Below are positions 3,941-29,491 of a stretch of DNA of 62,483 nucleotides, piece after piece. Source of the stretch: a virus. Taxonomy: Duplodnaviria > Caudoviricetes. The translations under genes and the position numbers were made by a program. Under the pieces are notes generated by a model. It ran no database searches. It saw only the letters and a program-made list of their open reading frames with translations, and was not told the DNA's origin. Where the stretch lies: the IMG/VR virus record IMGVR_UViG_3300038832_000018, positions 1 to 62,483 of that record; one strand, 5' to 3'. How positions within the stretch are numbered: position 1 is the first letter of the stretch; each line of letters starts with the position of its first letter.

Positions 3941-3995
3941 TGTACCGTTTCAGTCTGGGGTTAAAGTAGCCCTTACTCCCCATATTAACAATCAC

Positions 3996-4771: not shown

Positions 4772-4775
4772 ACTA

Positions 4776-4785
4776 CAAATATAAT
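4776..4785 (-). promoter_or_regulatory. Bacteroidota-type -7 promoter element ATTATATTTG
   Basis: Matches TAnnTTTG, 4 nt upstream of the ATG. Confidence 0.6.
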
Positions 4786-4789
4786 ATGA

Positions 4790-4921
4790 TTACCCGCTGC
4801 AGGATTCGCAGTCCTCGGGGGAGTCTATGTTACAAGAAATCTCCCCGCTCTCGAGTTTCTCTTCGGTCTTCTTCACCCGCTCAGGGTTGAGGAAGCTGAT
4901 GTCGTCTTCTTCAAAGTTCAT
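4790..4921 (-). CDS. 43-aa peptide ending CNIDSPEDCESCSG
   Basis: Translated by hand; fills the gap between neighbours and overlaps the end of the upstream gene. Confidence 0.65.
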   Translation of the reverse strand: MNFEEDDISFLNPERVKKTEEKLESGEISCNIDSPEDCESCSG

Positions 4922-6662
4922 TTCTGTCTCTCATAGATAGTGCGATGGCTACGGCTTGGTCGTGTGGGCGTCCCTCTTTCTTCAGCACCTTGATTTTTTT
5001 TGCAACCTTACCCCCGACGTCATATCTGAACCTAGCTCCAGTTTCAGGGACGATCTCAATAAACGGCACTGACTCCTCTACCCCTCCAGTCCTTACGACT
5101 CTGAACGGTTGCTTAGCACTTATCTGAACCTCGCTCTCTCCACCGAAGTGAATGTGCGCCCCTTGACCTCTAGAGGGTCTAAACATATCTGCTCTAAGTA
5201 CGGGGAGACCTTTAGTATCTGTAATCTTGAACCCAGGTCTGTTCGGGTCTAAAACTGGATCCCCACCTAATTTCTTTTGGATCAGTTTCATCTCATCTAC
5301 ACCCCCCATATCCATCAGTGAGAGATACTCACTTACTTCTTTGTCGATCCCATATCCAAAGCCCATGTCATCCAAAATCTCAGCGGCATCTAGATCTCCA
5401 TATTTTTGAAGTAGCTCAATTTGGGTTTTGACGTTTTCCTTTTGAGTCTGACTAAGGGCATCAAAGGCGGGTGACTTAAAAATCACATCTTCAGGAATGT
5501 TAGTAGAACCCACATTTCCAAAAGCTGCCATAAGATGTCCGAGGTCTCTGTCTGAGAAGCTCACCATTCTATCCGTCCCCTGCATCGCACGTTCTGCTTT
5601 CTGAGATAGAGTAGGCAAGATATCTCCTGGCTGGATTTTGTGGGCGGGGATATTCAAAACATCAGAGCCTCGAATCACATTATACTTTGCGCCCGCCACG
5701 GGGACCCTCTGAAGCGAGATGTTTTCCGCCATGCGTTGCATCTCGTCAGAGGCGATGAGCCCAGTTCCTTGCGCAGTACCGTGGCTCTGGTGCCGAAGCG
5801 ATTGGGTGACGGCTCTTTCTGACGGGGTCCCCTCGATCATGGACATCCCCCTGGGATCGATAGTGGTGATCGGCGGTCCCCCCAAAAGCTCAGTGCTCAT
5901 CCCTGGCTGTATGCCTGCCTGAGTCAAATCGACTGGGTCGAGCCCCGTATACCCCAACTGCCTCTGTCTTGTGCTGACGACGTCAGCCAACGTGATATCC
6001 TCACTCGAGAGTCGGCTCACTGGCGTCCCAGCCAAATCGATCCCCGTCCTACTTGACTCCTCTACTGCCTCTTTCAGCGCCTGATCGAACTCCCGTGGGT
6101 TGGCGGATCTGGCCTGTACGATGTTTTGAGCCTGAACCTGCATATCACCAAGGACCTGTGCGACCTCTTGGTTTCTCTGCATGGGGTCTTTGATGGCTCG
6201 AGCTCGGCGCAATCTCTTCTGCGTCTCCAACATCCCGTCTCTTACGGATCGTGGGAGAACCATCAACAGCGGGCCGAGCGCCTGCTCAAGATCGTTGTCT
6301 GAGGCGAGGGAGGTGAGGAAGAACGCGACGTCATCGATTGGGTTGAGCGCCTGCATAGTCGCCCCCATCGGCGTCTCGACAGACCTCATCTGACCGCGAG
6401 TTGGGAAAAACGTGTCGTATCTACTCGCCGCTTTGATCGCATCAAGAGGGTTTGCGAACATGTTGGCTAAATCGGCAAACCGATCCAGGATGCCATATTC
6501 TGGGGTGGGGCGGATTTCACCTTGGTCGAGGCGAGCCCTCTGATCTGCGAGGAGCTGAGCAAAAGCCGCTCTCTCTGCCTCCCTTACGGGGTCCCCATGG
6601 TACCCACCATGGCGGTATTTCTTAACCTGTACGCCTGGTTTGCGCTTTTTCTTTTGCCGCAT
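4911..6662 (-). CDS. 583-aa late protein with putative R-S-E ADP-ribosyltransferase domain
   Basis: VIRG, SFS and ESEV motifs in the expected order; C-terminal QAVAIALS motif. Confidence 0.5.
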   Translation of the reverse strand: MRQKKKRKPGVQVKKYRHGGYHGDPVREAERAAFAQLLADQRARLDQGEIRPTPEYGILDRFADLANMFANPLDAIKAASRYDTFFPTRGQMRSVETPMGATMQALNPIDDVAFFLTSLASDNDLEQALGPLLMVLPRSVRDGMLETQKRLRRARAIKDPMQRNQEVAQVLGDMQVQAQNIVQARSANPREFDQALKEAVEESSRTGIDLAGTPVSRLSSEDITLADVVSTRQRQLGYTGLDPVDLTQAGIQPGMSTELLGGPPITTIDPRGMSMIEGTPSERAVTQSLRHQSHGTAQGTGLIASDEMQRMAENISLQRVPVAGAKYNVIRGSDVLNIPAHKIQPGDILPTLSQKAERAMQGTDRMVSFSDRDLGHLMAAFGNVGSTNIPEDVIFKSPAFDALSQTQKENVKTQIELLQKYGDLDAAEILDDMGFGYGIDKEVSEYLSLMDMGGVDEMKLIQKKLGGDPVLDPNRPGFKITDTKGLPVLRADMFRPSRGQGAHIHFGGESEVQISAKQPFRVVRTGGVEESVPFIEIVPETGARFRYDVGGKVAKKIKVLKKEGRPHDQAVAIALSMRDRNEL

Positions 6663-6689
6663 GACCGTAAAGATACAAATGTGATCTGT

Positions 6690-7520
6690 TACACGTGTTT
6701 AGTTAAAGTATCACTTTAAGTGTGAGTGACTTTTAAACACAAGCAGCCCCAATCACAACCCATCTTACCAACGATACTTGGAGGGTCCGAAATCCCCCTC
6801 CATACTCGAGTTGGGTTCCGATAGGATACTGCAAAGTTACAACAGAAAATTGACAATGTCAAGCCCTGTTAAGAAGCATAGGTGTTTTTATGCGGCCCAT
6901 TCTGGTCGGCGGGGCTTTGAGAGCCCGCCACCAGGGCCGCTATCAACAAAGAAGCCCCGCATAAGCTTTCGCGTCGGCGAAATGTTGACGCTTTTTAGGC
7001 AAAAGGGCGAGAAGATCGCAGTCAGGGGATTATGTATATATACGCACGGTGCCGCGCCCAAACCGAACTCAACGCGCACGACCCCCCACCCCTCGCTAAC
7101 TCGTTGATTCTCAGGAATTTCTGCCTTTTTACTGCGCGTGTGTGCGGTAGTCTGCCGTACCCTGTCCCTCGCCGATGGGGGTCAACCTACGACCCCCTAA
7201 GTCGCTGATTCCCAAGCCCATCCCGACAAGGGTGGCCTCGCACGCGCTGACAAAGACTCTATCAATCGCCTGTGCGTAGCGCCTTGCGGTAGTTTACCGT
7301 CACTCCATTGTTGATAAATCCTCCACGGTTATTTACCGCGTGTGCGACCCTCTCTTCGGGGCTAACTCCCTGATTCTCAGTACTTTCCGTTTGGAGTGGC
7401 GGCCACGGTATTCTACCGCGCGGGCACTGATTAAAGACTCTAATCAATCGGGGGTGCGATTGTTGAGAACTTTATCAACTTTTGTCTTTGAGAGTACGTC
7501 GGACCACCCCGATTTTCCGA
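6690..7520. promoter_or_regulatory. Non-coding divergent control region (candidate origin or packaging site)
   Basis: Strand switch; IHF-like boxes at 7097, 7198 and 7363; four CGGTA-N3-TACCG-type palindromes. Confidence 0.55.
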
Positions 7521-7524
7521 ACCA

Positions 7525-7590
7525 TTAGTAACTCTAAGTTTAATACACTCTCTTCATTTATGAAGAGTGTATTAAACATAGAGATACTTA
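7525..7590. repeat. Intergenic hairpin repeat E1 (subtype A)
   Basis: gtttaatacactct-cttcatttatga-agagtgtattaaac with ctcta/tagag outer stem. Confidence 0.9.
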
Positions 7591-7611
7591 CCCCCTAAAC
7601 CCCCAACCACC

Positions 7612-8034
7612 ATGGCAAACTCCGCCACCCCCTCCAAGACCTTCTACACCCCAACCCACAAGGCCGACGGCACGAAGCTGAGCCGAGCCGAGCGGAAGGC
7701 CGCCAACAAGGCCAAGTGGGCCGCCGAGCAGGCCGCGAAGCGCAAGGCTTCAAAGTCAAAGAAGAAGACCAAAGCAAAGGCAAAGGTCAAGACTGCCGAG
7801 GTCAAGCCGTCTGCCGACCGCATGAAGCTGACCGACATCAAGCAGTGGTCGGAAGCACACCCCACACGGAAAACTATGTCAGCTCTTGACTTGTCTGATT
7901 GGATGACTCAAGGTCGGACCAAGACCGCCAAGCGCCTCGACCGCAAGGGCCGCATAGACTCACAGATGTCGAAGCGGAACAACCGCCTCGAGGTTCAGGC
8001 TCAGTACAAGGGCGGACAGCTCGCCGCCTTCTGA
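7612..8034 (+). CDS. Lys/Ala-rich basic first early protein
   Basis: 140 aa, C/A-rich leader. Confidence 0.75.
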   Translation: MANSATPSKTFYTPTHKADGTKLSRAERKAANKAKWAAEQAAKRKASKSKKKTKAKAKVKTAEVKPSADRMKLTDIKQWSEAHPTRKTMSALDLSDWMTQGRTKTAKRLDRKGRIDSQMSKRNNRLEVQAQYKGGQLAAF

Positions 8035-8104
8035 GCGCACGGATCCACGGACAAGCGTACACGGTGGCCCACATGGGCGAGGGGTTCGACTCCCCTCTGC
8101 GCTC
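8033..8104 (+). ncRNA. tRNA-like element (acceptor stem plus T-arm, aberrant middle)
   Basis: GAGCGCA/TGCGCTC and GAGGGG-TTCGACT-CCCCTC. Confidence 0.55.
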
Positions 8105-8129
8105 CAACAAACCCCCAAACCCCACACAT

Positions 8130-8351
8130 ATGCCCCTTTCCACCCGCTTCAGCAAGCGCCAAGCCGCCTTCCTTGAGGTCGTCAACAACTACCACGGGAA
8201 CGCGCCCACGTTCAAGTTCGACCCTACCTTCGAGCGCATCACTCTGATTGAAGCACCGTCAGGCTTCCTCCGCGAGCTCATGGACGCAGACGCGTCTCTG
8301 TTTCTCAAGCGCGATGGCCTCATCGTCGAATTCCTCAACGAAAACAGCTGA
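8130..8351 (+). CDS. Hypothetical early protein
   Basis: ATG follows a C/A-rich leader, 73 aa. Confidence 0.7.
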   Translation: MPLSTRFSKRQAAFLEVVNNYHGNAPTFKFDPTFERITLIEAPSGFLRELMDADASLFLKRDGLIVEFLNENS

Positions 8352-8364
8352 ACCCGACTGACCC

Positions 8365-8424
8365 TTACTCACTCTAAGTATACACTCTCTTCATTTATGA
8401 AGAGTGTATACATAGAGAGAGTTA
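8365..8424. repeat. Hairpin repeat E2 (subtype A)
   Basis: gtatacactct-cttcatttatga-agagtgtatac. Confidence 0.9.
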
Positions 8425-8452
8425 CCCCAACAGAAACCCCAACCCCAACCCC

Positions 8453-8671
8453 ATGACCCAATCCCAACGCATCGCCGCCAACATCGGCGCCCTCCGCGAG
8501 ACCACCAACAAGGCTCTCGACCTGCTCACCAAGACCGCCACGGACGCTTCCCGTGCGGAACTCGAACGACTTGAGGCCAAGCACGCTTGGCTCACCGCTG
8601 ACGGACCTGATGCGCTCCCCACGAGCGTGTGGTTCGACCTCCCGCCGAACGAGTGGTGGGACGCCAACTAA
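8453..8671 (+). CDS. Hypothetical early protein
   Basis: 72 aa, directly after E2. Confidence 0.7.
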   Translation: MTQSQRIAANIGALRETTNKALDLLTKTATDASRAELERLEAKHAWLTADGPDALPTSVWFDLPPNEWWDAN

Positions 8672-8682
8672 TCAGGCACTCA

Positions 8683-8726
8683 AGCGCACATGGTGTACAG
8701 GGGAGGTTCGATTCCTCCCTGCGCTC
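8683..8726 (+). ncRNA. tRNA minihelix-like element
   Basis: AGCGCA-12 nt-GGGAGG-TTCGATT-CCTCCC-TGCGCT. Confidence 0.55.
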
Positions 8727-8920
8727 AAACCATCCCGCAAGGGTGCAAGTGTCCGAATCACCGACTACGGACACCCACAGACCTAAACATCGGTGTACCC
8801 CGATACTCGTGGGGGACTTAAGCATCGAGTAGAGTAGGTGAAGCGCGTGTGACACTGACCCTCTGAGGGCAGGCGCACACCGACTCGACCCTTTAAAATG
8901 CAACCCCTAAACCCCGAACA

Positions 8921-9067
8921 ATGAAACGTTCAAACTTCGCCCCTCTGCTCGTGGGCGGCATCATCCTGCTCGCCTGCCTGGTGTCCTCGTGCGCCACGAC
9001 CGAATATACTTCGAGCACCTACCGACACCATAACCACGGCGCGTGTGCCGCATACCAAAACCCCTGA
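8921..9067 (+). CDS. 48-aa putative lipoprotein
   Basis: MKR + hydrophobic stretch + VSS-C lipobox; translated by hand. Confidence 0.65.
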   Translation: MKRSNFAPLLVGGIILLACLVSSCATTEYTSSTYRHHNHGACAAYQNP

Positions 9068-9071
9068 AACC

Positions 9072-9461
9072 ATGACTGAACAACAACTCGGCTACATCCC
9101 TCACGAGGGTATGCCCGTGAACTTGTACATGGGTCCGATGTCACAGCGCAACTACGATGCCCTGTGGAACTACCAAAAGACGGCAGGTTCCTTCGCATCC
9201 TCGCTCATCCAAGCGTTCTGGAACGCTGACGGCAACAACCGCATCAAGTTGCTCGATGCCTTCCCGTGGCTGTTCGTCCTGCGCGAGGAAATGATCGCGG
9301 AGGCGGAGACGTGGTGGGAGGAGTACGAGGAGGAGAACAAAGTCTGCTCCACCTGCGATGGCAACGGCTCCTACCTGAGCGGCCACTACGCTGACCCCGA
9401 CTCGTACGAGGTCACCTGCCCTGACTGCGACACCTACGACCCTGACACCCGCGACCGCTGA
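9072..9461 (+). CDS. Early protein with C-terminal zinc finger
   Basis: CSTCDGNG...CPDC. Confidence 0.7.
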   Translation: MTEQQLGYIPHEGMPVNLYMGPMSQRNYDALWNYQKTAGSFASSLIQAFWNADGNNRIKLLDAFPWLFVLREEMIAEAETWWEEYEEENKVCSTCDGNGSYLSGHYADPDSYEVTCPDCDTYDPDTRDR

Positions 9462-9471
9462 AATCCAACCC

Positions 9472-9535
9472 TTAGTATCTCTTAGTATATACACTCTCTT
9501 CATTTATGAAGAGTGTATATACTAAGAGAGACTTA
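9472..9535. repeat. Hairpin repeat E3 (subtype A)
   Basis: tagtatatacactct-cttcatttatga-agagtgtatatacta. Confidence 0.9.
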
Positions 9536-9554
9536 CCCCAAACCCCAAACCACT

Positions 9555-9962
9555 ATGGCAAAGAGAGAAAGAAAGAATGACGGCTACCTCGGGAAGGTAG
9601 AGTTCTGGACCGAGCAGTTGGCTCTCGCAAAAGAGGCGGAACAGCTCGGCCTTGAGGACCACTCACGCTACCCCATCGAGCGGTGCGAAGAGAGCCTCGC
9701 CTACTTCAAGGGCAAGCGGGCGGACTACCTCGCCAAGCACGGCGAGACCTCCGAGGCCGATGTTGAATCCGCGAAGGACCGCGCCATCCGCAAGTGTCAG
9801 GAGCGCTTCGAGGGCCTGAACGAGAGCGAGCGCATGATGCTGGCCAACAAGGTCATCAAGGATGCCACAGGCATGGGCATCAGCGTGAACGAAACGATGG
9901 CCTTCCTCAAGGACGCGGAGGTCATGAGCGACACCGAACTGATTCACTCCGTCACCTTTTAG
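9555..9962 (+). CDS. Hypothetical early protein
   Basis: ATG 9555; stop codon lies within E4. Confidence 0.7.
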   Translation: MAKRERKNDGYLGKVEFWTEQLALAKEAEQLGLEDHSRYPIERCEESLAYFKGKRADYLAKHGETSEADVESAKDRAIRKCQERFEGLNESERMMLANKVIKDATGMGISVNETMAFLKDAEVMSDTELIHSVTF

Positions 9963-10014
9963 ACACTCTAATAATACTCTGAACAAAGTGAAGAGTATTA
10001 TATAGAGAGTCTTA
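9959..10014. repeat. Hairpin repeat E4 (subtype B)
   Basis: ataatactct-gaacaaagtga-agagtattat. Confidence 0.9.
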
Positions 10015-10032
10015 CCCCAAACCCCAACCCCA

Positions 10033-10767
10033 ATGTCAAAAGTTCCATCTCGAATTGCATGGCATGACGGCAAAGTTCTGCACGTCATCCGCCTCGGCAA
10101 GACCACCAACGCAAAGATTGCACGCCCCACAGACAAGGTGTTGCAGACCTACCACTTCGACCTTCGGCAGTTGGCCCTCGTGCGGTCACACCTCGACGGC
10201 AAGCGCAAGATTCCGATGTCGGATTTCTTCGACCTCGATGCCGCCAACTGCATGGACTGCCCGCTCTCAAGCAACAGCGGCAACGGCAAGTGTTACACAC
10301 ACAAGTACATGCAGTTCAGCGGGTTCGTGTCCATGCTCAAGTCCCTGTGCAACGAGGACATCCACGAAGGTTTGGATGACGTGCACCGATTGGGTATCAA
10401 GCTGATGGCCGAACGTGCGGACTTCATCCGCTTCGGTACATACGGTGAGCCATCGCTACTCCCCATCGACCTTGTGGGCGACATCGTGGTGGCAGGGCAA
10501 TGCAAGTGGACGGGGTACACACACCAGGCGCGCAAGCCTTGGGCGCAAGACTACTCCGCCTACTTCATGGCTTCGGCCCACTCTGACAAAGACGCCGCAT
10601 CGATTACGGGGTGGCGGGCCTTCGTCTGCGTCGAGCCTGACGACACCTCCACGGGTGTGCAATGCCCTGCATCCAAGGAACTGAGCGTATCCAACTGCTC
10701 CACCTGCGGGCTGTGCTCAGGGATCTTGGGCAAGGGCAAGAAGAACATCAAAATCAATATGCACTGA
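10033..10767 (+). CDS. GP88-like / radical-SAM-like Fe-S protein
   Basis: CMDC-x10-CY, RFGTYGEP, GYTH and CPA...CSTCGLC motifs. Confidence 0.55.
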   Translation: MSKVPSRIAWHDGKVLHVIRLGKTTNAKIARPTDKVLQTYHFDLRQLALVRSHLDGKRKIPMSDFFDLDAANCMDCPLSSNSGNGKCYTHKYMQFSGFVSMLKSLCNEDIHEGLDDVHRLGIKLMAERADFIRFGTYGEPSLLPIDLVGDIVVAGQCKWTGYTHQARKPWAQDYSAYFMASAHSDKDAASITGWRAFVCVEPDDTSTGVQCPASKELSVSNCSTCGLCSGILGKGKKNIKINMH

Positions 10768-10844
10768 CATGCCAAAAGCAGAACTCATCAAGGCGCTCGA
10801 CGGCGTTCCAGAACACATCCCGCTGTACGTTATGCTCTGAACCA

Positions 10845-10903
10845 TTAGATACTCTATAGATATACTCTGAACATAGTGAAGAGTATATCGATAGAGAATC
10901 TTA
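10845..10903. repeat. Hairpin repeat E5 (subtype B)
   Basis: gatatactct-gaacatagtga-agagtatatc. Confidence 0.9.
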
Positions 10904-10918
10904 GAAACCCTGACCCCA

Positions 10919-11632
10919 ATGATTGACCTCAAGAAATCCCCCCGCACCATGGAACTCCCTCCGAACCCCCTCCGTACCCTGTACCGCCGCCGCTGTAGCG
11001 TGACGGGTGAAGGCATGAACTCTGGTTGGCTCTTCGAAGACGACCACGACACCATCAAGTACAAGCGTGACGTGGTCCGCGTCATCAAAGATTGCGCCCC
11101 CAACTACGGCCTCAATGTCGAGGGCCGTTCGGACGACGACATCCTGCAAGCCGCATTCGAACTCGACATCTGCTATTGGACCGAGTGGGAGGAGGAGATT
11201 GGTCCCGACGACGAGTGCTACACCCTGCACGGGGTGACCTTGCACACGGAAGCGGACCGCAAAGCCTACCGCAACAACCTCCCCTGCTCTGACGTGGAGC
11301 GGGCCGCAGTAGTCCTGGCGGACCGTGGTTACCACGTGTGGGTCATCGAAGGTGAGGGCGAGGAGTACGGGGATCCACGACTGTGGACAGGCAAGCAGTT
11401 CCTCTGCATCGGAAATATTTGGGACCACAAACTGACGGAGGCCATTGCAGTCGAGGTTGGCAAGCGCGAGTTGAAGCACTACTCCGACCACTACCTCGCC
11501 GACCCTGACAAGTTCTTGGGCACTGCGATGAACCCCAATCGGTGGCGCTTCATCGGATGGGAGAGCATCCACAAGACCCTCCCCGAACTCATGCCCAAAG
11601 AGTACGGCGCTGAAGACATCCCATTTGACTGA
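10919..11632 (+). CDS. Acidic hypothetical early protein
   Basis: 237 aa between E5 and E6. Confidence 0.75.
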   Translation: MIDLKKSPRTMELPPNPLRTLYRRRCSVTGEGMNSGWLFEDDHDTIKYKRDVVRVIKDCAPNYGLNVEGRSDDDILQAAFELDICYWTEWEEEIGPDDECYTLHGVTLHTEADRKAYRNNLPCSDVERAAVVLADRGYHVWVIEGEGEEYGDPRLWTGKQFLCIGNIWDHKLTEAIAVEVGKRELKHYSDHYLADPDKFLGTAMNPNRWRFIGWESIHKTLPELMPKEYGAEDIPFD

Positions 11633-11638
11633 ACCCCA

Positions 11639-11697
11639 TTAGATACTCTAAGTATATACTCTGAACAAAGTGAAGAGTATATACATAGAGAATCTTA
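11639..11697. repeat. Hairpin repeat E6 (subtype B)
   Basis: gtatatactct-gaacaaagtga-agagtatatac. Confidence 0.9.
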
Positions 11698-11710
11698 AAC
11701 CCCTAACCCC

Positions 11711-12043
11711 ATGAAGTTTTACAACGTCGACCCCAAGAAAGGTATCACCGACCACCTGAAGGATGCACTCGAAGACAGCATGAGACTCGAACGCATCTTG
11801 AATTACTGCGCCGAGGTTGACATCAACCCGTATGCAGAGAACCCGCTCGATGCGAGTTCCTCGACCCCCTTCATCGAGTTCCTGCCCGACACCAACCTCG
11901 CGAACGTTTCGTGGCGAGAGGAAGACATGATGACCGACGACTACACCTCCCCGTCATGGCTGATGGGGAACATCCAAGAGGCGTTGCAATCCATCATCGC
12001 ACTCTACCTCGAACACGACAAGCAAGCCACCATCGACCTCTAA
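11711..12043 (+). CDS. Hypothetical early protein
   Basis: 110 aa, directly after E6. Confidence 0.7.
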   Translation: MKFYNVDPKKGITDHLKDALEDSMRLERILNYCAEVDINPYAENPLDASSSTPFIEFLPDTNLANVSWREEDMMTDDYTSPSWLMGNIQEALQSIIALYLEHDKQATIDL

Positions 12044-12046
12044 GCT

Positions 12047-12265
12047 ATGGACTCATACGGAATCTACGTGATGGCTACCATCATCGAACACCACTGCGGA
12101 TTGCACGGAGATGCAATGGACCTGCATTGGGAGTTTTCTGCCGCACATTATGCCAACTTCTACCGCTCCCGTTGGGATAGCGAGGACCGCAGTCAGGCCG
12201 ACTGCATTGAAACATACGTCAAACACCAATCTGAGAACGACCCCGATTGGTTAAACCCTGAGTAA
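12047..12265 (+). CDS. Hypothetical early protein
   Basis: Coupled 72-aa ORF. Confidence 0.65.
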   Translation: MDSYGIYVMATIIEHHCGLHGDAMDLHWEFSAAHYANFYRSRWDSEDRSQADCIETYVKHQSENDPDWLNPE

Positions 12266-12726
12266 TGATTGACAGACAAGTAAACGCTAAGGTCATCTAT
12301 CCTACCCTTGGCTACACCGTACTCAGTACGGGACAGGATATCCGCCGAGACGAGAACGTCGAGGTCATCGTTCACGTTGGACACGCCGCCCATGGAAGGG
12401 CGTGGTTCGAGTTCTACGACAGGAAGACAGAGGGGGAGGCGTACCACGCCGAGGGAGAACTCGAGGTCGAGGACGGCAAGCTCGTGGGGTACGATGGTGT
12501 CGGAGAACTCCCGACTGTGGTGATGGACATCGCACGGGACAAGTTCGGTGTCGACGTGTCGGAGGTGTACCACGATGACGGACAGCCCAACGAATACGAG
12601 ATGTTCATGTACTGGGTGGACGGCAAGTGCTTCCACACCATGCATGACGCCCGACAATACATCCACTCCCTCAAGCTCGATCTTGACGCGAACCGCGCCA
12701 AGTTCAAGGAGATTCAGAGGAAGTGA
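12265..12726 (+). CDS. Hypothetical early protein
   Basis: TAATG start/stop overlap, 153 aa. Confidence 0.7.
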   Translation: MIDRQVNAKVIYPTLGYTVLSTGQDIRRDENVEVIVHVGHAAHGRAWFEFYDRKTEGEAYHAEGELEVEDGKLVGYDGVGELPTVVMDIARDKFGVDVSEVYHDDGQPNEYEMFMYWVDGKCFHTMHDARQYIHSLKLDLDANRAKFKEIQRK

Positions 12727-12813
12727 ACGTGGTGGGGACCACGGGGAAGAGGGTGAGAGCGCACCACCCGTCATCGAATACATCGTGCGCCGAAGGGGTG
12801 AGAGGCCCCTACA

Positions 12814-12855
12814 TGATGCGAATGGTTAATGAGGGTTCGATTCCCTCCCGCATCA
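12814..12855 (+). ncRNA. tRNA minihelix-like element
   Basis: TGATGCG-10 nt-GAGGG-TTCGATT-CCCTC-c-CGCATCA. Confidence 0.5.
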
Positions 12856-12988
12856 CCTCCTGTTCAGAGGTGTGAATTGGTATAGGGGTAGCCTATGCCC
12901 GACCTCACCACAGAAGGGAACAGGTAGCGGAACGCCTCATCCGATAAAACGACAGGGGGAAGTCGTCGAACTGCAGTCGGCGCACACT

Positions 12989-13061
12989 GCCCACGTAGCT
13001 CAGGGGATAGAGCAACTGCCTTCTAAGCAGTCGGTCGCAGGTTCGAATCCTGCCGTGGGTA
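12989..13061 (+). tRNA. tRNA-Arg(TCT)
   Basis: Full cloverleaf: acceptor GCCCACG/CGTGGGT, TAGCTCAG..GGATAGAGC D-arm, CTTCTAA anticodon loop, GGTTCGAATCC; CCA not encoded. Confidence 0.92.
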
Positions 13062-13084
13062 CTAACCCCCAAACACACACAATC

Positions 13085-13213
13085 ATGGACAAAGAAATCA
13101 TCGACGAACTCTGCAACAAAGTAGCAGACATCAAGTACGAACTACAACAGGTCCTTGACGTCCTGTACAGATTACAAAGCGAAGAAGAGAACACATGGAC
13201 AACGAAATTATAA
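13085..13213 (+). CDS. Small hypothetical protein
   Basis: 42 aa, helical, follows a C/A-rich leader. Confidence 0.5.
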   Translation: MDKEIIDELCNKVADIKYELQQVLDVLYRLQSEEENTWTTKL

Positions 13214-13677
13214 AGCGCCTTGAGTGGCATGACGGCGGCGATGGTGTCGATTACGAGTTCTGGAAAGACCCTGATACAGGAAAGCTGTACAAGGTGCCAA
13301 TCCAAATCGAGCGGCTGTTCGACCAGGCAGAAGCAGTGGATAGAGTCTCAAAATTCTTCTACATGAATCATTTTGACAAGACCGTACTGGAGACGGTACA
13401 GAAAGACATCGAAGCCGTCGAGCGGGTCGGCAGTATGCGGGGACTGATTGGATGGTGGTCTGTCACAGACGCCCACGGTACGGGCCTCGCAGGTGAAGAC
13501 CAATGGAACTTCGTCACGGATAGCTACCCCAAGTTCGTGGAGTGGGTGCTGAAGCAGTACATGGAGAACGAGCCTCACCCGATGTACACCGACCGCAAAA
13601 TTCACTGGAGAGACATCGATGACTACGAGGTCATGACCGCATACATCGAAGAGATGGGAAGCATCGACAACATTTGA
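13195..13677 (+). CDS. Hypothetical protein
   Basis: 160-aa ORF. Confidence 0.7.
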   Translation: MDNEIIKRLEWHDGGDGVDYEFWKDPDTGKLYKVPIQIERLFDQAEAVDRVSKFFYMNHFDKTVLETVQKDIEAVERVGSMRGLIGWWSVTDAHGTGLAGEDQWNFVTDSYPKFVEWVLKQYMENEPHPMYTDRKIHWRDIDDYEVMTAYIEEMGSIDNI

Positions 13678-13688
13678 CACACACAATC

Positions 13689-14036
13689 ATGAGTTATTAC
13701 TACACCAAACCCGACCAGCCGCTGAACGCGTACAACCAACTATGTTGCATCCAAGGCATCACCGATGACCTCGATGCTCTGAAGCCCCTGCTCGAAGAGC
13801 AGTTCGATATCCGCGTCAAGATGGCTGACGAATATTTCACTCTGCCCACCCCTGGGGAACCAGACACGGGGGGCAGGCGTGACATCCTCTTCTATGTCCA
13901 CGACGACGACACCATGAAGTTCGCCGTACCTCGATTGCAGTTCGGCATCAGGTGGTGGGAGGACATCCTCGGCAACGGCCACGGCCCGACGATTCCGCAG
14001 GAGATTCTTGACAAATACCCAAACACATGGACATGA
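13689..14036 (+). CDS. Hypothetical protein
   Basis: ATG at 13689. Confidence 0.7.
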   Translation: MSYYYTKPDQPLNAYNQLCCIQGITDDLDALKPLLEEQFDIRVKMADEYFTLPTPGEPDTGGRRDILFYVHDDDTMKFAVPRLQFGIRWWEDILGNGHGPTIPQEILDKYPNTWT

Positions 14037-14314
14037 GTTTCCTTACACGCACCCCAGCACTCGACCAACACGTATCTATTCGATTGAATCTGCGTGCTGA
14101 GCAAATCTCCGACAGGGTCAAGCGCGAAAGCGAGCGACACGGAGAGAACTACAAAGACCTGGACGGCCCCCCGATGCGCTGTCTGGCGAACATGTTTGTC
14201 AATCACGCAGACACTGAAGTCATCACCGCGTGGTTGGAGAGGCAGGACACCGCGTTCCGTGACTACGTCCCGCGTATGGTGTTCGAAATCCTGAAGGACA
14301 ACACGTACGAATGA
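14027..14314 (+). CDS. Hypothetical protein
   Basis: Coupled ORF. Confidence 0.6.
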   Translation: MDMSFLTRTPALDQHVSIRLNLRAEQISDRVKRESERHGENYKDLDGPPMRCLANMFVNHADTEVITAWLERQDTAFRDYVPRMVFEILKDNTYE

Positions 14315-14472
14315 CGCAAGCATACCTCGACGAACTACAGGCTCGCATTGACGAGCTGTATGATAGGCTTCTCGATGATCCTGAGTGCAGGGCCACAGCA
14401 ATCCTGCTGTCTGCGTGCATCGACAACTACAATGCGAAACTCAAACTCCTACAGAAACCATGCGCCAACTAA
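14311..14472 (+). CDS. Small hypothetical protein
   Basis: ATGA overlap, 53 aa; translated by hand. Confidence 0.5.
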   Translation: MTQAYLDELQARIDELYDRLLDDPECRATAILLSACIDNYNAKLKLLQKPCAN

Positions 14473-15329
14473 AAATCACACAACAAGTCACACGTAGAGA
14501 CGCTGAGTCGCTCAACAAGTACCTGACTGACATCTCACCGATTGGACTGATTGACGCACAGCGAGAGGCAGAGCTGGCCTATCGCATCCGTGTGCACGGA
14601 GACAAGCAAGCCATGGACGAGTTGGTCAAGGCTAATCTGCGCTTTGTGGTCTCCGTTGCCAAGCAGTATCAGGGGCAGGGATTGAGCCTGCAAGACCTCA
14701 TCAACGAAGGCAACCTCGGGCTCATTAAAGCGGCCACTCGCTTCGACGAGACCAAGGGGTTTAAGTTCATCTCGTATGCGGTCTGGTGGATTCGACAGCA
14801 CATCTTGCAGGGGATCAGCACGCAGGGTCGTACGGTGCGTCTGCCACAGAACAAGATTGCTACGGTGGTCAAGATTCGCAACGCCACGTCAGACCTCATG
14901 CAAGAGAACGAACGGCCCCCTACGATTTACGAGTTGGCCGAACACCTTGGCGTTTCTGTAAAGGAGATTGAGCTATGCATCTCAAACACAGGGGCAGTAC
15001 CGTCCCTGGACGCGCCATTGTCCTCCGACAGCTCTTCGAGTCCATTCATCGACATCGTCCCTGATTCCGAGGGCGACCACCCCGACCAACTCATGGACCT
15101 GATGTCCATGCGACAAGACATAGCTGAAGCGCTCAAGGTGTGCAGTCCGCGCGAGCAGAAAATCCTGTGCATGTGTTACGGCATTGGCACAGAACACCCA
15201 CACACGCTGGATGAAATCGCCGAGCACTTCGACGTCACTCGTGAACGCGTCCGACAAATCAAAGACAAAGCCATCAGACGACTGCGCCGTCCGATGATTA
15301 ACAATATGCTCCGAAGCCATTTGGGTTAG
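14460..15329 (+). CDS. rpoD: RNA polymerase sigma-70 factor, Bacteroidota primary-sigma type (no region 1.1)
   Basis: MRQLKITQQVT start; NLRFVVSVAKQY, DLINEGNLGL, KFISYAVWWIRQ and TRERVRQI motifs. Confidence 0.92.
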   Translation: MRQLKITQQVTRRDAESLNKYLTDISPIGLIDAQREAELAYRIRVHGDKQAMDELVKANLRFVVSVAKQYQGQGLSLQDLINEGNLGLIKAATRFDETKGFKFISYAVWWIRQHILQGISTQGRTVRLPQNKIATVVKIRNATSDLMQENERPPTIYELAEHLGVSVKEIELCISNTGAVPSLDAPLSSDSSSSPFIDIVPDSEGDHPDQLMDLMSMRQDIAEALKVCSPREQKILCMCYGIGTEHPHTLDEIAEHFDVTRERVRQIKDKAIRRLRRPMINNMLRSHLG

Positions 15330-15384
15330 ACACTCTAAGTATATACTATGAACATAGTGAATAGTATATACATAGAGAGTCTTA
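15326..15384. repeat. Hairpin repeat E7 (subtype B)
   Basis: gtatatactat-gaacatagtga-atagtatatac; contains the sigma-factor stop codon. Confidence 0.9.
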
Positions 15385-15567
15385 ATGATAGAGACCATGA
15401 CACTGAAAGAACAACGAGACCTGCAAGACAAACATCGAATCATGACGGCATTGATAAACAACAAGGGCCATCGACGTGCGGCCAGCATCGATCTCTGCAT
15501 GAGCGAACGCACCCTGTACCGCTACCTCCGCCGCCTTGATTTGCAAAAATTTGCCAAGAGCACTTGA
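15385..15567 (+). CDS. Fis-type HTH protein
   Basis: ALINNKGHRRAASIDLCMSERTLYRYL. Confidence 0.7.
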   Translation: MIETMTLKEQRDLQDKHRIMTALINNKGHRRAASIDLCMSERTLYRYLRRLDLQKFAKST

Positions 15568-15616
15568 CAAACCACCAACACCCCGTATCTTTACAAACCC
15601 TCAACACCCTAACCCC

Positions 15617-16120
15617 ATGAATGAGAACACCGAACACAACGGCATCCTTGTCGTTGCCAACACCTACCGCCGCCCCTGGGGCACAGGAAAGACTGTGCAA
15701 CAAGCCCGCAAGAACGGCTACGGAATCCGCAAGACGGACCACCAAACCATTTACTACTTCCGCCACAGTCATTGGGCTGTGAGTGGTTACGGCAACCCCG
15801 TCTACCCACCTGACGTCGAGCCCCCCGTGGAAGTGACCATGTACAAGGGGGAGATCATCAAGATGACCCTCCATGGACGTGGTGAAGCTTATGAGAATGG
15901 CTGGAAGAGCGAGGTGTACATCATGGAGCACCCCGACTCCGATGCCGCTGAGAAGGACCGCGTCAAAGGTAAGATGGTGTACGAGGAGCAGGACTCCGAG
16001 TACGAATTCAACGAGGCCAACGACAACTTCAACAGCCCGACCTACATGAAGAAGACAGACATGGTCGAGTACGAGCCAGGCAAGTGGCGTGACAAGAAGT
16101 ATGCAAACGAAGCGGCATGA
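15617..16120 (+). CDS. Hypothetical protein
   Basis: ATG at 15617 after a TATCTTTA promoter-like site and C/A-rich leader. Confidence 0.7.
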   Translation: MNENTEHNGILVVANTYRRPWGTGKTVQQARKNGYGIRKTDHQTIYYFRHSHWAVSGYGNPVYPPDVEPPVEVTMYKGEIIKMTLHGRGEAYENGWKSEVYIMEHPDSDAAEKDRVKGKMVYEEQDSEYEFNEANDNFNSPTYMKKTDMVEYEPGKWRDKKYANEAA

Positions 16121-16275
16121 TTACTGACGGCGAGAAAGACATCCGAACCTGCCTGTTCGAACTCGAGCAGTCCGCAGTGGGGCGTGACGACATGGAGGAC
16201 CTGGAGCTGGTGCAACGGGTACAGAAGTTTGTCGACGACCAAGAGAACACCATCCTAAATCTTTTCAAGCAATGA
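16117..16275 (+). CDS. Small hypothetical protein
   Basis: ATGA overlaps at both ends. Confidence 0.55.
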   Translation: MITDGEKDIRTCLFELEQSAVGRDDMEDLELVQRVQKFVDDQENTILNLFKQ

Positions 16276-16556
16276 GCGACCACATCTACATCAAGTGCCT
16301 TGGAGAACCCTTCGACGGGTACTCTCCATACAAAGTGTACGAAACCGACGACTGGCTGGCCGTCATGTACGACAGCAGTGATAGGGGCAGGCCCACTGAG
16401 CACGACCTGAACATCTGGTGGGACGAGAACAAAGAGAAGTGGCAATGGGCCATCTACAGCCTTCGTAAGGACCGCGAAGGCATGATGCAGACGGATGGTC
16501 GTCTGGCCATCGCCAGCGGTGACGCAGAAGTAGCAGAAGATTATGCAGGACACTAA
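16272..16556 (+). CDS. Hypothetical protein
   Basis: Coupled ORF. Confidence 0.65.
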   Translation: MSDHIYIKCLGEPFDGYSPYKVYETDDWLAVMYDSSDRGRPTEHDLNIWWDENKEKWQWAIYSLRKDREGMMQTDGRLAIASGDAEVAEDYAGH

Positions 16557-16566
16557 CGAAGAACAC

Positions 16567-16875
16567 ATGAGCCACGATCACGTAGACCCCCTATTCAAGA
16601 ACATCTTGAACGCAGTCAGCGGACAGATGGAGTTCGTTGCCAAGCGCATCGACATCAAACTCAAAGAGAAAATGCCAGACACACAACGCCTGACCGTTCA
16701 GCAGGCCCAAGCACTGAACAAATTGCTCGACCTCATCCACGACCTCATGCACGAAGTGGATGACCAGCACAGACAAGACAAGTACGAACGCAGATTCCAA
16801 CTCATCCTCGACAAGCTGTTCCCTGAACGCGTGCAGTGGAGAAACACCAATGCTGATGGCACGAAACAATCCTGA
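16567..16875 (+). CDS. Hypothetical protein
   Basis: ORF within the operon. Confidence 0.6.
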   Translation: MSHDHVDPLFKNILNAVSGQMEFVAKRIDIKLKEKMPDTQRLTVQQAQALNKLLDLIHDLMHEVDDQHRQDKYERRFQLILDKLFPERVQWRNTNADGTKQS

Positions 16876-17050
16876 GGACTTCAACTACATCGTTGCCTAC
16901 ATGGGGGGCACGGAGATGGAGGGGGTGACCGAGGGGTTCTTTCCGTGCAAAACCATGGATGACGTGGTCGATACCATGGACGATATCAAAGAATCGCACG
17001 GCTTCTGGAAGCTGGCCGTGTGTCAAATCATAGAAGAGTATGAAAGCTAA
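16856..17050 (+). CDS. Small acidic hypothetical protein
   Basis: ORF within the operon. Confidence 0.55.
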   Translation: MARNNPEDFNYIVAYMGGTEMEGVTEGFFPCKTMDDVVDTMDDIKESHGFWKLAVCQIIEEYES

Positions 17051-17414
17051 AATTAGATTCCACTTGGGGCGCGGCCCCAACTACCAGAGATGGCAAGTCA
17101 AGTATGATGATGCCGTCGAGTACTACGACCCCGAGGACGTGATCCTGGAGATGCATGATGCCAAGCTGTGTAACAACCGCAAGACTGCCGAGCGCATCTG
17201 CAACGGGGAAAACAAAACTGTGTGCGCATGGGTAGAGTGCGATGAGGTGGTCGTCCTCCCATCGAACCCTGACAGCGCACCGCAAGTGCGTGACTTCGCT
17301 CACTACAACCCGAAGCGCCGACCGTTTTGGCACAACACCGCCCGAGAAGACTTGGACAACACCGAGTACCCGAGGCTTGCAACCTATGGCAAACTCATAA
17401 TCATCCCGACATGA
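17040..17414 (+). CDS. Hypothetical phage protein
   Basis: 124 aa, coupled. Confidence 0.7.
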   Translation: MKAKIRFHLGRGPNYQRWQVKYDDAVEYYDPEDVILEMHDAKLCNNRKTAERICNGENKTVCAWVECDEVVVLPSNPDSAPQVRDFAHYNPKRRPFWHNTAREDLDNTEYPRLATYGKLIIIPT

Positions 17415-18049
17415 CCGAGAAACATACACCAGCACAGCGATTCCAGCTGGCGGCGGAGAGAATTGAGATAGAGAGGAAGCAACTGAGGGGCATGTCTACC
17501 ACCATGCGCATCAGAGGAGAGTCTTCGGAGTCTATCATGAAGGAGATTATGGAGATTGTCTGTAACGCCTACGCCGTGTCTAAAGAGGAGGTGTGCAGTC
17601 CAAACCGAGTGAAGGCGATTGCCCATGCTCGACATGCATACTGCTACCTCTGCACCAAGCTGGACCCCATGATCACCCTCAAAGAGGTTGGAGCGACCAT
17701 CAACAGAGACCACAGCACTGTCATCAACAGTATCAAAAAGACAGAGGATTTGCGTCTCACTGATTACCACTTCATGGCCTCGTTCAATGTGTGCCTCGAC
17801 AGTATCGCAGACAGCAACAGCAAGTACATGCGACGACTGGACGTAGGGGGGCACGGCCTGGAACAAGGCGGAGAAGACGCGGGAGAAAACGAACTTCACA
17901 AGTCGGTTCGTGCCCTCGGTATCGTGCATGACTTCATGCTTGCCTACTCGGCATACGACCTACGTAAAAGTGACGGTGACCCGTCGACTCACGACCTGTT
18001 GCTTGACCTTCAAGACATCAGATACAAAGCACTCAAACAAGGATTTTAA
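17411..18049 (+). CDS. Protein with DnaA domain IV-like HTH
   Basis: ARHAYCYLC...TLKEVGATINRDHSTVINSIKK resembles the DnaA C-terminal signature. Confidence 0.75.
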   Translation: MTEKHTPAQRFQLAAERIEIERKQLRGMSTTMRIRGESSESIMKEIMEIVCNAYAVSKEEVCSPNRVKAIAHARHAYCYLCTKLDPMITLKEVGATINRDHSTVINSIKKTEDLRLTDYHFMASFNVCLDSIADSNSKYMRRLDVGGHGLEQGGEDAGENELHKSVRALGIVHDFMLAYSAYDLRKSDGDPSTHDLLLDLQDIRYKALKQGF

Positions 18050-18060
18050 TTCACACCCCC

Positions 18061-18411
18061 ATGAAAAAGTGGAAAGCCTGGTCGGATGATGACCTCCGTA
18101 TTGTGCACAGCTCAATGCGCCTCATTTTGAAAACCTCAGGTGGCCGTGGCGTCAGCCTGAAGAACAGAATTCTGCAGGCAGTGGCGAAGGATGTAGACCG
18201 TAGCGTCGACGCCGTAGCCGCCAGAGTTCGGATCGAGCTAACAAAGCAAGGGCTGTTGCCTGCACCAAAACCTAGGTCCAAGTCCCATCCTAAGATGGTC
18301 ATGCAATACACCCCGCCCGAACCAACCCAAGCCAGTGTGGCCGCCGTCCCACTAAGAAAGCTGTACGGCAAAGTCGATTTTGAAACCTTTATGTCCCTCA
18401 TCAATGAGTAA
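18061..18411 (+). CDS. Hypothetical protein, possibly DNA-binding
   Basis: Basic 116-aa ORF. Confidence 0.6.
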   Translation: MKKWKAWSDDDLRIVHSSMRLILKTSGGRGVSLKNRILQAVAKDVDRSVDAVAARVRIELTKQGLLPAPKPRSKSHPKMVMQYTPPEPTQASVAAVPLRKLYGKVDFETFMSLINE

Positions 18412-19776: not shown

Positions 19777-19842
19777 CTGGGACTTTGACTTGGTCTATGC
19801 CATAGTCTTGTATATATTTATTCTCGCACAAATCATTTTAGC

Positions 19843-29490: not shown

Positions 29491-29491
29491 G

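Follow-up and report, generated by a model that had tools for sequence, protein, structure and literature searches.

A strand-specific family of palindromic hairpins ahead of phage early genes that looks like a widespread gene-punctuation signal

Introduction

The Caudoviricetes genome IMGVR_UViG_3300038832_000018, analysed here over its whole length of 62,483 bases (the window in what follows), carries in its early region seven related hairpins, E1 to E7, each of which stands on the coding strand shortly before a start codon. These hairpins belong to a strand-specific family of palindromic cassettes that recurs in phages with hardly any genes in common, and the family looks like a widespread gene-punctuation signal. 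A cassette is made up of a long stem, an invariant apex, in which a T-A pair closes two G.A pairs, a 2-bp helix and an R-N-A triloop, and a leader that is rich in C and A but poor in G. The reading that we favour, and hold tentatively, is that the hairpins act as intercistronic punctuation at the RNA level (processing, stability, insulation), that they share an ancestry with repetitive extragenic palindromic (REP)-like repeats, and that their repetition also permits occasional gene shuffling.

Seven hairpins in the early region

An earlier note on this DNA, made from its letters alone, had reported seven hairpin repeats of about 60 bp, and all of them are found at the positions it gave, on the + strand only and nowhere else in the genome. 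E1 (7525..7590) lies ahead of the first + strand gene, separated from its ATG at 7612 by a 21-nt C/A-rich leader. E2 (8365..8424) is followed by a 28-nt leader and ATG 8453, E3 (9472..9535) by a 19-nt leader and ATG 9555, E4 (9959..10014) by an 18-nt leader and ATG 10033, E5 (10845..10903) by a 15-nt leader and ATG 10919, and E6 (11639..11697) by a 13-nt leader and ATG 11711, while ATG 15385/15398 comes next after E7 (15326..15384). The copies are therefore 56-66 nt long and lie 0-28 nt before the next ATG, with the leader in between being rich in C and A and poor in G. Two copies contain the TAG stop of the gene upstream, as had been noticed before: in E4 the stop lies in the 5' base of the stem, and in E7 it ends the gene of a sigma-70-family protein (14460..15329, +), the final gene ahead of this hairpin.

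A hairpin finder set to at least 14 pairs and a loop of up to 16, when run over all 62,483 bases, returned six of the seven copies and no other site, the omission of E4 being explained by the one bulge in its stem. A covariance model of the family likewise matches only the seven sites within the window. Folded as RNA, the copies reach -21 to -32 kcal/mol with z values of -4.8 to -8.2, and for every copy none of 200 shuffled sequences was as stable. An Rfam search of the hairpins gave sub-threshold AU-rich hairpin families only, with a best score of 33.7 bits against a gathering threshold of 55.8.

The stems hold 21-24 pairs in 24-27 positions, and their mismatches recur at fixed places. The outer flanks read TTAG...CTTA, and the TTA...TTA direct repeat that flanks all seven copies reads as a T.T mismatch if it is counted as part of the stem. 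The alignment of the copies makes visible the two cores, the compensatory changes and the recurrent A.A mismatches that the earlier note had listed. E1, E2 and E3 have the palindromised core CTTCATTTATGA, while the core of E4-E7 is GAACAWAGTGA, which forms the tandem-GA/triloop apex and reads GAAC-ATA-GTGA in E5 and in E7 and GAAC-AAA-GTGA in E6; E7 carries in addition the compensatory change ACTAT/ATAGT. In E1-E3 the 5' half of the core complements the 3' half, ...ATGAAGAG, which in turn resembles the 3' half of the E4-E7 core, ...GTGAAGAG. E1-E3 are fully palindromised versions and not a second loop type, their 5' core half having become the complement of the conserved 3' half.

The hairpin family in other phages

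The 19-nt apex of E4-E6 (CTCT GAACAWAGTGA AGAG) has 28 exact matches in 26 IMG/VR contigs, and long complementary arms flank 27 of these, the exception, in contig L010, being apparently due to chance. The carriers include a close relative of the window (L014), a syntenic but distant genome (G001) and a contig that shares few genes with it (L019), as well as phages with nearly no shared content, namely G002 (58.6 kb), G004 (68 kb), which encodes a true crAss muzzle protein (E 3.7e-40), and the 27-kb fragment G005, which bears nine long hairpins. For the study of covariation, 25 distinct members were chosen by the core GAAC-NNN-GTGA and at least 11 of 18 arm pairs, so that the pairing in this set is partly a matter of selection. 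They align without gaps and share the invariant columns T-GAAC-..A-GTGA-A, 13 apical columns being invariant in all, while the base of the stem differs between lineages. The triloop reads R-N-A (AAA, ATA, GTA, GGA or AGA), which gives an apex consensus of T-GA-AC-RNA-GT-GA-A (R, purine; N, any base). Tandem G.A pairs with a triloop, put forward by the earlier note as something that the E4-E7 core could form, belong to an apex that does not vary among the 25 members, and the two G.A pairs are predicted to be sheared.

Across a 20-pair structure, 88.4% of the cells of the 25 members pair, compared with 59.5% in shuffles, and changes on both sides are seen at 17 of the 20 pairs; in unrelated phages the arm sequences differ wholly and yet stay complementary. 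The covariation score is 0.718, a value reached by none of 500 shuffles (0.18), and structures slid along the alignment score at most 0.33. The idea that pairing is maintained, first drawn from the seven copies, is strongly supported and holds in unrelated phages as well. The arms also differ in composition, the 5' arm being rich in pyrimidines (30% purine) and the 3' arm in purines (74% purine). An operator for a dimeric repressor was considered and rejected, as the arms are wholly different between lineages while staying paired.

When the set is extended with the model, it comprises 41 phage hairpins from at least ten phage groups, all of them sense-oriented and single. Behind 39 of the 41, an ATG open reading frame (ORF) of at least 35 aa begins 0-55 nt downstream, after a C/A-rich leader. 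The leaders are C/A-rich whether or not GGAGG follows, a motif that is present in some and absent in others. An origin or packaging site was rejected, since there are seven copies in the window and each is tied to a start codon. Among cultured phages, blastn with one 47-nt member of the family (E up to 10) returned no record with the apex.

Exchange between copies and possible shuffling of early genes

Six of the seven hairpin positions are orthologous in the close relative L014, and E1-like copies are present also in the more distant L019 and G001. The differences between the hairpins of the window and those of L014 are mostly double and compensatory (many in E1, one in E3 and two in E7), and few are single. 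The L014 orthologue of E2 has a GAAC-AGA-GTGA apex where the window copy has a palindromised core, and the L014 equivalent of E7 is 100% identical to window E6 over 60 nt, while the E6 site itself is without a hairpin in L014. Because the E2 apex has been swapped and the E7 equivalent matches E6, the copies exchange sequence within genomes. The distribution of the hairpins among related phages is patchy, and their number varies between close relatives.

Part of the covariation may stem from copying of one arm onto the other at the DNA level, and not from selection on an RNA fold. This is suspected because the stems pair by Watson-Crick rules only: among the 350 cells of the inner 14 pairs of the 25 members, 318 are Watson-Crick, 29 are other mismatches, three are A.C and none is G.T. 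Template-switch mutation is an established process that corrects quasi-palindromes, and templated correction of this kind during DNA synthesis would be expected to leave just such stems with Watson-Crick pairs only, palindromised cores as in E1-E3 and copies that exchange sequence. Since such correction yields the same pattern, covariation alone cannot separate RNA from DNA. The asymmetric apex and the fixed mismatches, which persist against this homogenising pressure, indicate selection.

Gene content was expected to change at the repeats, and this holds in part, since changes fall at cassettes more often than at random places but also at ordinary gene boundaries. Between the window and L014, the E2 cassette keeps 87% identity in the midst of genes that have been replaced on both of its sides, and L014 has extra DNA immediately upstream of E3 and of E5. 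By contrast, the block of E6 and two genes that is missing from L014 has one of its ends inside a gene. Contigs from four metagenome runs were also compared at 80% likeness, at which joints may come from other organisms. In one such contig the E2 leader (8448) runs, after 20 other letters, into the start of the gene behind E4 (10054), and in one the end of gene g11 (12261) stands before E6 (11636), whereas the best-supported joints, of 12041 with 12726 (three runs) and of 13066 with 13362 (two runs), lie away from hairpins. Near-zero cover in the bins 9606-9939 (four of four runs) and 12278-12611 (two runs) proves nothing in this respect.

The T4-type cassettes known as promoter early stem-loop (PeSL) elements, with which the repeats had been compared, are repeated regulatory stem-loop cassettes that flank small orphan early genes and around which close relatives diverge, and in these respects the cassettes of the window are alike (PMC2839356). 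The same source describes PeSLs as having a strong sigma-70-like promoter and a terminating stem-loop, whereas the cassettes of the window have neither a promoter motif nor the features of a terminator (PMC2839356). Shuffling of the PeSL type has at most partial support: some breakpoints abut cassettes, but the difference in the E6 region and three other joints end away from hairpins.

Another proposal holds that the hairpins are attC-like sites, folded from one strand, at which a site-specific recombinase captures early-gene cassettes. As with integron attC, structure is kept while sequence varies, the elements lie at gene boundaries, and some population variants join sequence at or beside cassettes. 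However, attC sites have an integrase, conserved base boxes and extrahelical bases and follow their gene, none of which holds for E1-E7: the conserved part is the apex and not the base, the hairpin precedes its gene, and several breakpoints fall away from the hairpins. The earlier note had recognised no cognate recombinase, and a six-frame search of the complete genome agrees, as neither a tyrosine recombinase (PF00589) nor a resolvase/serine recombinase (PF00239) was found, nor a Y1 transposase (PF01797). The attC-like proposal is thereby largely refuted, and we consider it very improbable.

The apex in bacterial repeats, mitochondria and DNA mini-hairpins

The same 19-mer occurs in 84 stretches of bacterial and archaeal contigs sampled at one genome per species, 80 of which underlie the counts of context given here. 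Long arms accompany only 1 of the 80. GTCA stands directly upstream in 38 (29 TGTCA, 6 CGTCA and 3 AGTCA) and TCT downstream in 36, and 24 have, by a loose pattern, an imperfect inverted partner 20-60 nt away. With a relaxed pattern, 16 short tandem-GA/triloop units were found in an 8 kb locus of a Cyclobacteriaceae contig (L108), where they form, within 4 kb (3050-6992), a dense REP-like field, in both orientations, among ordinary polysaccharide-synthesis genes and fall into two subtypes whose inner 2-bp helix covaries (AC/GT, GT/AC).

These bacterial units have a REP-like repeat anatomy that fits the CGTC class of REPs as outlined in PMC3733652, in which the tag is often TGTC, stems of 8-9 bp open with A-T and there is a short tail. 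According to the same outline, the class is found in Bacteroidetes among other phyla, a dedicated transposase is not known for it, and roles in mRNA stabilisation, supercoiling and termination have been hypothesised for REP elements (PMC3733652). The likeness is drawn from the text description, and membership of the bacterial units in the families of that study is not proven.

The apex of E4-E6 equals the body of these TGTCA/CGTCA-tagged repeats, which are intergenic and multicopy as described (PMC3733652), and E7 differs from it by one compensated pair. The phage elements are nevertheless not REPs of the described kind, since their stems measure 21-27 bp as opposed to 8-9 bp and the copies are without the CGTC tag (PMC3733652). 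REP and REPIN elements differ further in that the phage copies keep a single orientation, form no head-to-head dimers and are fixed before start codons. A short REP unit has 20-40 bp and a GTAG or CGTC/TGTC tag, whereas the window copies have 56-66 nt and TTAG...CTTA flanks. The REP-associated tyrosine transposase (RAYT, Y1), which goes with the GTAG class only, is absent from the window genome as PF01797. Because the apex is common to the phage hairpins and the bacterial REP-like repeats, the phage family is probably of REP-like origin.

A text search for variants of the apex gave a further lead, the short interspersed element 'Bpu' of cycad mitochondria, whose 36-nt consensus has the same architecture with terminal direct repeats (PMC8297867). 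In Cycas and Ginkgo the element has a pyrimidine-rich 5' arm and a purine-rich 3' arm, and between them T-GA and GA-A on the two sides of a 2-bp helix with a G-N-A triloop; unlike the phage hairpins it is shorter, belongs to a eukaryotic organelle and, in the description at hand, has no link to gene starts (PMC8297867). The likeness was noted by inspection and may be convergent, and it is a lead, not a proven relationship. In structural terms the apex combines tandem G.A pairs in a pyrimidine-GA-purine context with a C-(G/A)NA-G triloop, a motif type described as an extraordinarily stable DNA mini-hairpin (PMC13037366), and the same loop type is reported to stabilise the promoter hairpin of phage N4 (PMC4496689).

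The shared apex raises the question whether the phage hairpins are simply selfish repeats, similar to REPs, REPINs or miniature inverted-repeat transposable elements, that sit in tolerant early intergenic spaces and benefit the phage only by providing homology for recombination. The apex is identical to that of TGTCA/CGTCA-tagged repeats in many bacterial phyla, the GTCA flank accompanies nearly half of the core matches (38/80), and one locus has 16 copies in 8 kb; the mitochondrial element has the same architecture and, as far as described, terminal direct repeats (PMC8297867); and the TTA direct repeat around all seven window copies, the patchy distribution with its copy-number differences between close relatives and the homogenisation within genomes all agree with such an origin. 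On the other hand, the hairpins are strictly sense, fixed before start codons and accompanied by a co-conserved leader (39/41), L014 has orthologous copies at six of the seven positions, and L019 and G001 have E1-like ones. A conserved loop on variable arms is, moreover, the reverse of what a transposase-recognised repeat shows, the window genome has no Y1 transposase, and the conserved mismatches and the asymmetric apex persist although palindromes tend to become perfect. Given orientation, position and orthology, a purely selfish repeat is unlikely, while REP-like ancestry is still likely.

Transcriptional context of the early region

A non-coding divergent region of ~860 nt (6663..7524) lies upstream of E1. 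It is kept in L014 (71%), and in L019 its motifs can still be made out. Within it lie three copies of a 27-nt repeat (7095, 7196 and 7361), four small palindromes of the CGGTA...TACCG type, an AT-rich TATGTATATATAC stretch and a terminator-like hairpin (6971-6991); the region may be an origin, an operator field or the source of a small RNA.

Between E1 and E7, each long spacer carries either a hairpin (E2-E7) or, in three spacers, a tRNA or tRNA-like element, and hairpins and tRNA-type elements alike precede the same kind of C/A-rich leader. The first tRNA-like element (8033..8104, +), with a 7-bp acceptor stem and a T-arm, occupies the spacer between genes g1 and g2, which is without a hairpin. 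A minihelix of acceptor stem and T-arm (8683..8725, +) lies between g3 and g4, and the g12|g13 spacer holds both a second minihelix (12815..12854, +), kept in L014 within a block of 91% identity, and a tRNA-Arg(TCT) (12989..13062, +) that was called by ARAGORN and Rfam and is directly followed by a C/A-rich leader and ATG 13085. The three tRNA-like elements have a GGTTCGA(T/C)TCC loop in the T-arm and lie directly 3' of stop codons in hairpin-free spacers; ARAGORN and Rfam do not call those at 8033, 8683 and 12815. They could be RNase P/Z processing signals within an early operon. L019 shows the same mixture of hairpins and tRNA-like elements, with one tRNA-like element at about 5679. In G001 the equivalent early-region spacer (~62091-62150, -) holds a 16-bp intergenic hairpin without the tandem-GA apex, which has four G.U pairs and could be stable only as sense RNA.

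A scan of the window gave 28 terminator-like sites, none of which is a copy of E1-E7, whose stems are AT-rich, have no T run and are followed by CTTACCCC-type leaders. As the hairpins are not terminators, they must be read through if they are transcribed; an intrinsic terminator was rejected on the same features, namely the missing U tract, the gene directly after and the AT-rich stems. The + strand block ends at two near-identical terminators with a GC stem and a T run (23664-23693 and 23738-23765), which face the late genes of the - strand.

As for promoters, the motif TAnnTTTG (mostly TATATTTG), which corresponds to the Bacteroidota-type -7 box, lies 2-22 nt before seven late-gene starts on the - strand (4776-4783, 41458-41465, 42361-42368, 43625-43632, 49047-49054, 54240-54247 and 60326-60333). 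The total count of the box in the window is at chance level, so that only these positions carry weight. Some of the - strand boxes would give leaderless or near-leaderless mRNAs. The host-type promoter TTTG-N(16-22)-TANNTTTG has no match anywhere in the window, and neither a sigma-70-like site nor a Bacteroidota -7 box was found in or beside the seven cassettes. A sigma-70-like match, TTGACA-16-TATCTT (10/12), is present at 15564-15591, after E7 and one small ORF and ahead of a C/A-rich leader, and is a candidate middle promoter for the phage's own sigma factor. Near the hairpins of G002, sigma-70-like matches occur at chance (6 found, 6.5 expected). The G005 fragment (L039) has, at 17519-18378, a strong sigma-70-type promoter (11/12), two small genes of no assigned family and a strong terminator called by the scanner; a second terminator-like hairpin, seen by eye, and then a series of hairpin-led genes follow, which is the layout of immediate-early and delayed-early genes.

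Proposed punctuation of an early transcript

We tentatively propose that a polycistronic early transcript would start in the ~860-nt region upstream of E1, where one or more early promoters are expected if the hairpins are transcribed, and would be made by the host RNA polymerase. The polymerase would read through the hairpins, which have no U tract and have a gene directly behind them. As folded RNA they would serve to punctuate the transcript, their 21-27-bp helix with its fixed internal mismatches being a candidate substrate for host RNase III. The helix would also block 3' exonucleases, so that the upstream cistron would keep a protective, stabilising hairpin at its 3' end, while the downstream cistron would start with an unstructured C/A-rich leader or be insulated by the hairpin from all but this leader. 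In hairpin-free spacers the tRNA and tRNA-like elements, as substrates of RNase P and RNase Z, would serve the same role. Homologous recombination or gene conversion between the repeated cassettes may occasionally reshuffle early genes as a by-product.

RNA punctuation is favoured because of the strict sense orientation and the fixed place before start codons (7/7 window copies; 39/41 in the extended set), because the anatomy is that of elements to be read through (no T run, gene next), because tRNA-type processing signals occupy equivalent positions, and because no phage polymerase, recombinase or transposase was found that would use the elements as DNA sites. The hosts of the carriers differ, and GGAGG occurs in some leaders only, so that a universal host function fits better than a lineage-specific enzyme. 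Stems of 21-24 pairs are of the length class of substrates of the double-stranded RNase, RNase III, and the hairpins provide at least about two helical turns, internal mismatches, sense orientation and a place at gene junctions, on what would be a single spanning transcript. By six-frame search, RNase III was found in a Bacteroidota control genome and not in the window genome. Further support comes from the G001 hairpin, with its four G.U pairs and a predicted stability as sense RNA only, and from the hypothesis that the REPs which share the apex stabilise mRNA (PMC3733652).

Among known systems, the RNase III sites of phage T7 come close. The T7 early operon has such sites (R0.3, R0.5 and others) as related hairpins of ~60 nt with internal mismatches between early cistrons. 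The window has a comparable set between early cistrons and before the first one, in the sense orientation and without U tracts; it differs in its near-perfect, Watson-Crick-only stems and in an apex that is invariant across unrelated phages, and no promoter was found upstream of it. In Mimivirus, the 'hairpin rule' links palindromes at the 3' ends of transcripts to polyadenylation. These palindromes, too, are intergenic signals of RNA end formation whose arms vary from gene to gene, but they have no conserved apex and belong, with their link to polyadenylation, to a eukaryotic giant virus. We regard the phage elements as a variant of intercistronic processing hairpins, REP-like repeats and PeSL-like cassettes that is unusual for its invariant apex on a freely varying long stem; a literature search, supplementary material aside, found no earlier description of them.

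Several observations weigh against RNA punctuation. RNA-level selection normally tolerates wobble, whereas the inner stems have three A.C and not a single G.T/U wobble, as if pairing were enforced or regenerated on the DNA itself. RNase III does not depend on a particular loop, and punctuation of RNA leaves the invariant apex, a DNA-stability motif, unexplained. The promoter search in the region upstream of E1 found none, and the -7 box is absent from the + strand from 6663 to 23650. In G005 the promoter and its two genes are closed off by the strong terminator before the hairpin-led genes begin, and no sigma-70-like promoter lies between that terminator and these genes. Finally, the cultured relative elemo (Elemovirus) has no such hairpin in the first 32 of its 59.98 kb, the early block included.

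The DNA hairpin or cruciform as a possible promoter

The absence of wobble, the DNA-stability apex, the lack of a promoter match and the layout of G005 keep alive an explanation at the DNA level, in which the hairpins are themselves promoters. The long palindromes would extrude from supercoiled phage DNA, with the stable coding-strand apex nucleating extrusion and leaving open a pyrimidine-rich 11-nt loop on the template strand, at which an injected polymerase or a phage-modified host RNA polymerase would start a transcript with a purine-rich beginning followed by the C/A-rich leader. The stems pair by Watson-Crick rules only on both strands, and the C-RNA-G triloop with sheared G.A pairs is the kind of loop that drives extrusion of the N4 promoters (PMC4496689). 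The hairpin also occupies the slot, directly ahead of a C/A-rich leader, that the sigma-70-like promoter has before the middle gene at 15617. No canonical host promoter is found on the + strand, while seven late genes have a -7 box; the hairpin-led genes of G005 stand behind a strong terminator and are without a sigma-70-like promoter; and the complete hairpin-carrying genomes all encode giant virion proteins of 1791-4111 aa.

The model for such a system is the N4 virion RNA polymerase, whose promoters, as far as the source describes them, share with the window the C-(G/A)NA-G triloop, the sheared purine pairing and the presence of several copies before early genes (PMC4496689). The palindromes of the window, like those of N4, could extrude from supercoiled DNA. 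They differ in that N4 has a 5-7-bp stem and a 3-nt loop in a template-strand hairpin, whereas the window has 21-27 bp, three to four times as much, and its structured apex on the coding strand (PMC4496689). With the apex on this strand, an N4-like enzyme would transcribe away from the genes. The N4 virion is described as carrying a 3500-aa T7-like polymerase (PMC4496689), for which no counterpart was found in the window. A six-frame search for T7-type RNA polymerase (PF00940) gave no match, a weak negative in that control genomes gave none either; PDB sequence searches with the 2183-aa and 1791-aa proteins of the window, the 3013-aa protein of G002 and the 4111-aa protein of G004 gave no match, the DxDxD motif is missing from all proteins of 1000 aa or more in the five genomes compared, and a scan for the T7-like motif B gave nothing credible, although a very divergent enzyme may have escaped these searches.

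In the search for a polymerase, all that PHROGs and Pfam recognised was a crAss muzzle protein, LPD38, virion proteins and portals. The LPD38 domain belongs to the 1791-aa protein of the window (24220-29595, -), and the C-terminal half of this protein has relatives in Stx, Vibrio and Ralstonia phages that are annotated as LPD5/DarB-like antirestriction proteins among the 30 listed of 346 matching cultured-phage records; the 2183-aa protein (33148-39699, -) has weak matches to crAss muzzle. The giant proteins of the window, then, resemble a DarB/LPD-type polyvalent protein and the crAss muzzle, and are probably an injected polyvalent protein and a tail muzzle. The apex is also common in repeats of bacteria that are interspersed with ordinary genes and point in either direction, which does not suit a promoter. 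The hairpin promoter that the earlier note had listed therefore keeps the loop type and the setting of N4 and fails on two of its defining features, as its structured apex belongs to the coding strand and the search for a virion RNA polymerase was negative; we hold it to be doubtful.

Possible recognition of the apex by a protein

A 13-nt apex that stays unchanged in unrelated phages calls for recognition of its sequence, and the element lies in the 5' untranslated region near the start codon, as would suit a specific RNA-protein site, be it an antiterminator of the nut/put kind, a translational operator or the target of a shut-off nuclease. The first hairpin of G005 follows the terminators and the two immediate-early genes, to which no function is assigned. 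However, there is no protein common to all carriers, E1-E3 keep position and stem without the special apex, and no family assignment was found for any early protein, so that we consider an RNA-protein site quite improbable. By BLAST and phmmer among the five genomes, only a primase/helicase (four genomes) and a 101-aa late-block protein (three genomes and the fragment L026) are shared, and the sigma factor is present in the window and L014 only, the other carriers being without one.

A broader and more speculative proposal, itself rather unlikely, is that the tandem-GA/triloop apex defines a superfamily of hairpins in phages, in many phyla of bacteria and archaea and in the mitochondria of plants, and that some factor or process of very wide conservation reads it. 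Several unrelated lineages of phages would have extended it to long palindromes that replace canonical early promoters, either as an N4-independent DNA hairpin promoter whose cruciform is held open by the mini-hairpin of the coding strand, or as the recognition site of an early regulator.

The genome and its host

The window is a single contig whose ends overlap by 55 bases, and it is classed as a genome with direct terminal repeats and a completeness of 100%. The + strand carries the genes from 7.6 to 23.6 kb and the - strand nearly all the others, and PHROGs/Pfam annotation recognises a portal protein, a large terminase, a primase/helicase and the sigma-70-family protein. The terminase has its best match (50%) in an uncultured Caudoviricetes record, followed by Flavobacterium podophages of the genus Elemovirus (41%) and Cellulophaga phages, among 99 records. 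The late block contains ORFs for a CHU_C type IX secretion sorting domain (36-1325, -) and a GroES-like co-chaperonin (1880-2455, -), and the start codons of the window are without Shine-Dalgarno sequences. A Bacteroidota host is indicated by the terminase kin, the CHU_C type IX secretion domain and these start codons.

The gene behind E4 (10033-10767, +) encodes a Cys-rich early protein of 244 aa that belongs to phrog_2554 and has no assigned function. It recurs beside hairpins in the otherwise unrelated contig L006 (29% identity) and is one of the few early proteins common to different carrier lineages.

Implications

How early gene expression starts and is organised is poorly known in Bacteroidota phages and in many uncultured marine phages. 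The hairpins described here can be searched for by a simple signature, a 13-nt apex that does not vary on a stem that does, with a C/A-rich leader behind it, and in at least ten phage groups, whose hosts differ, this signature marks the starts of early genes. They also draw a link between phage regulatory DNA and bacterial REP-like repeats. For long DNA palindromes in general they hold a caution, in that wobble-free double compensatory changes can come from arm-to-arm copying at the DNA level and are not in themselves proof of a functional RNA fold. If the hairpins are processing or stability signals, operon design in Bacteroidota would gain a natural set of insulators; should they instead be promoters or sites of protein binding, they would point to a new recognition system.

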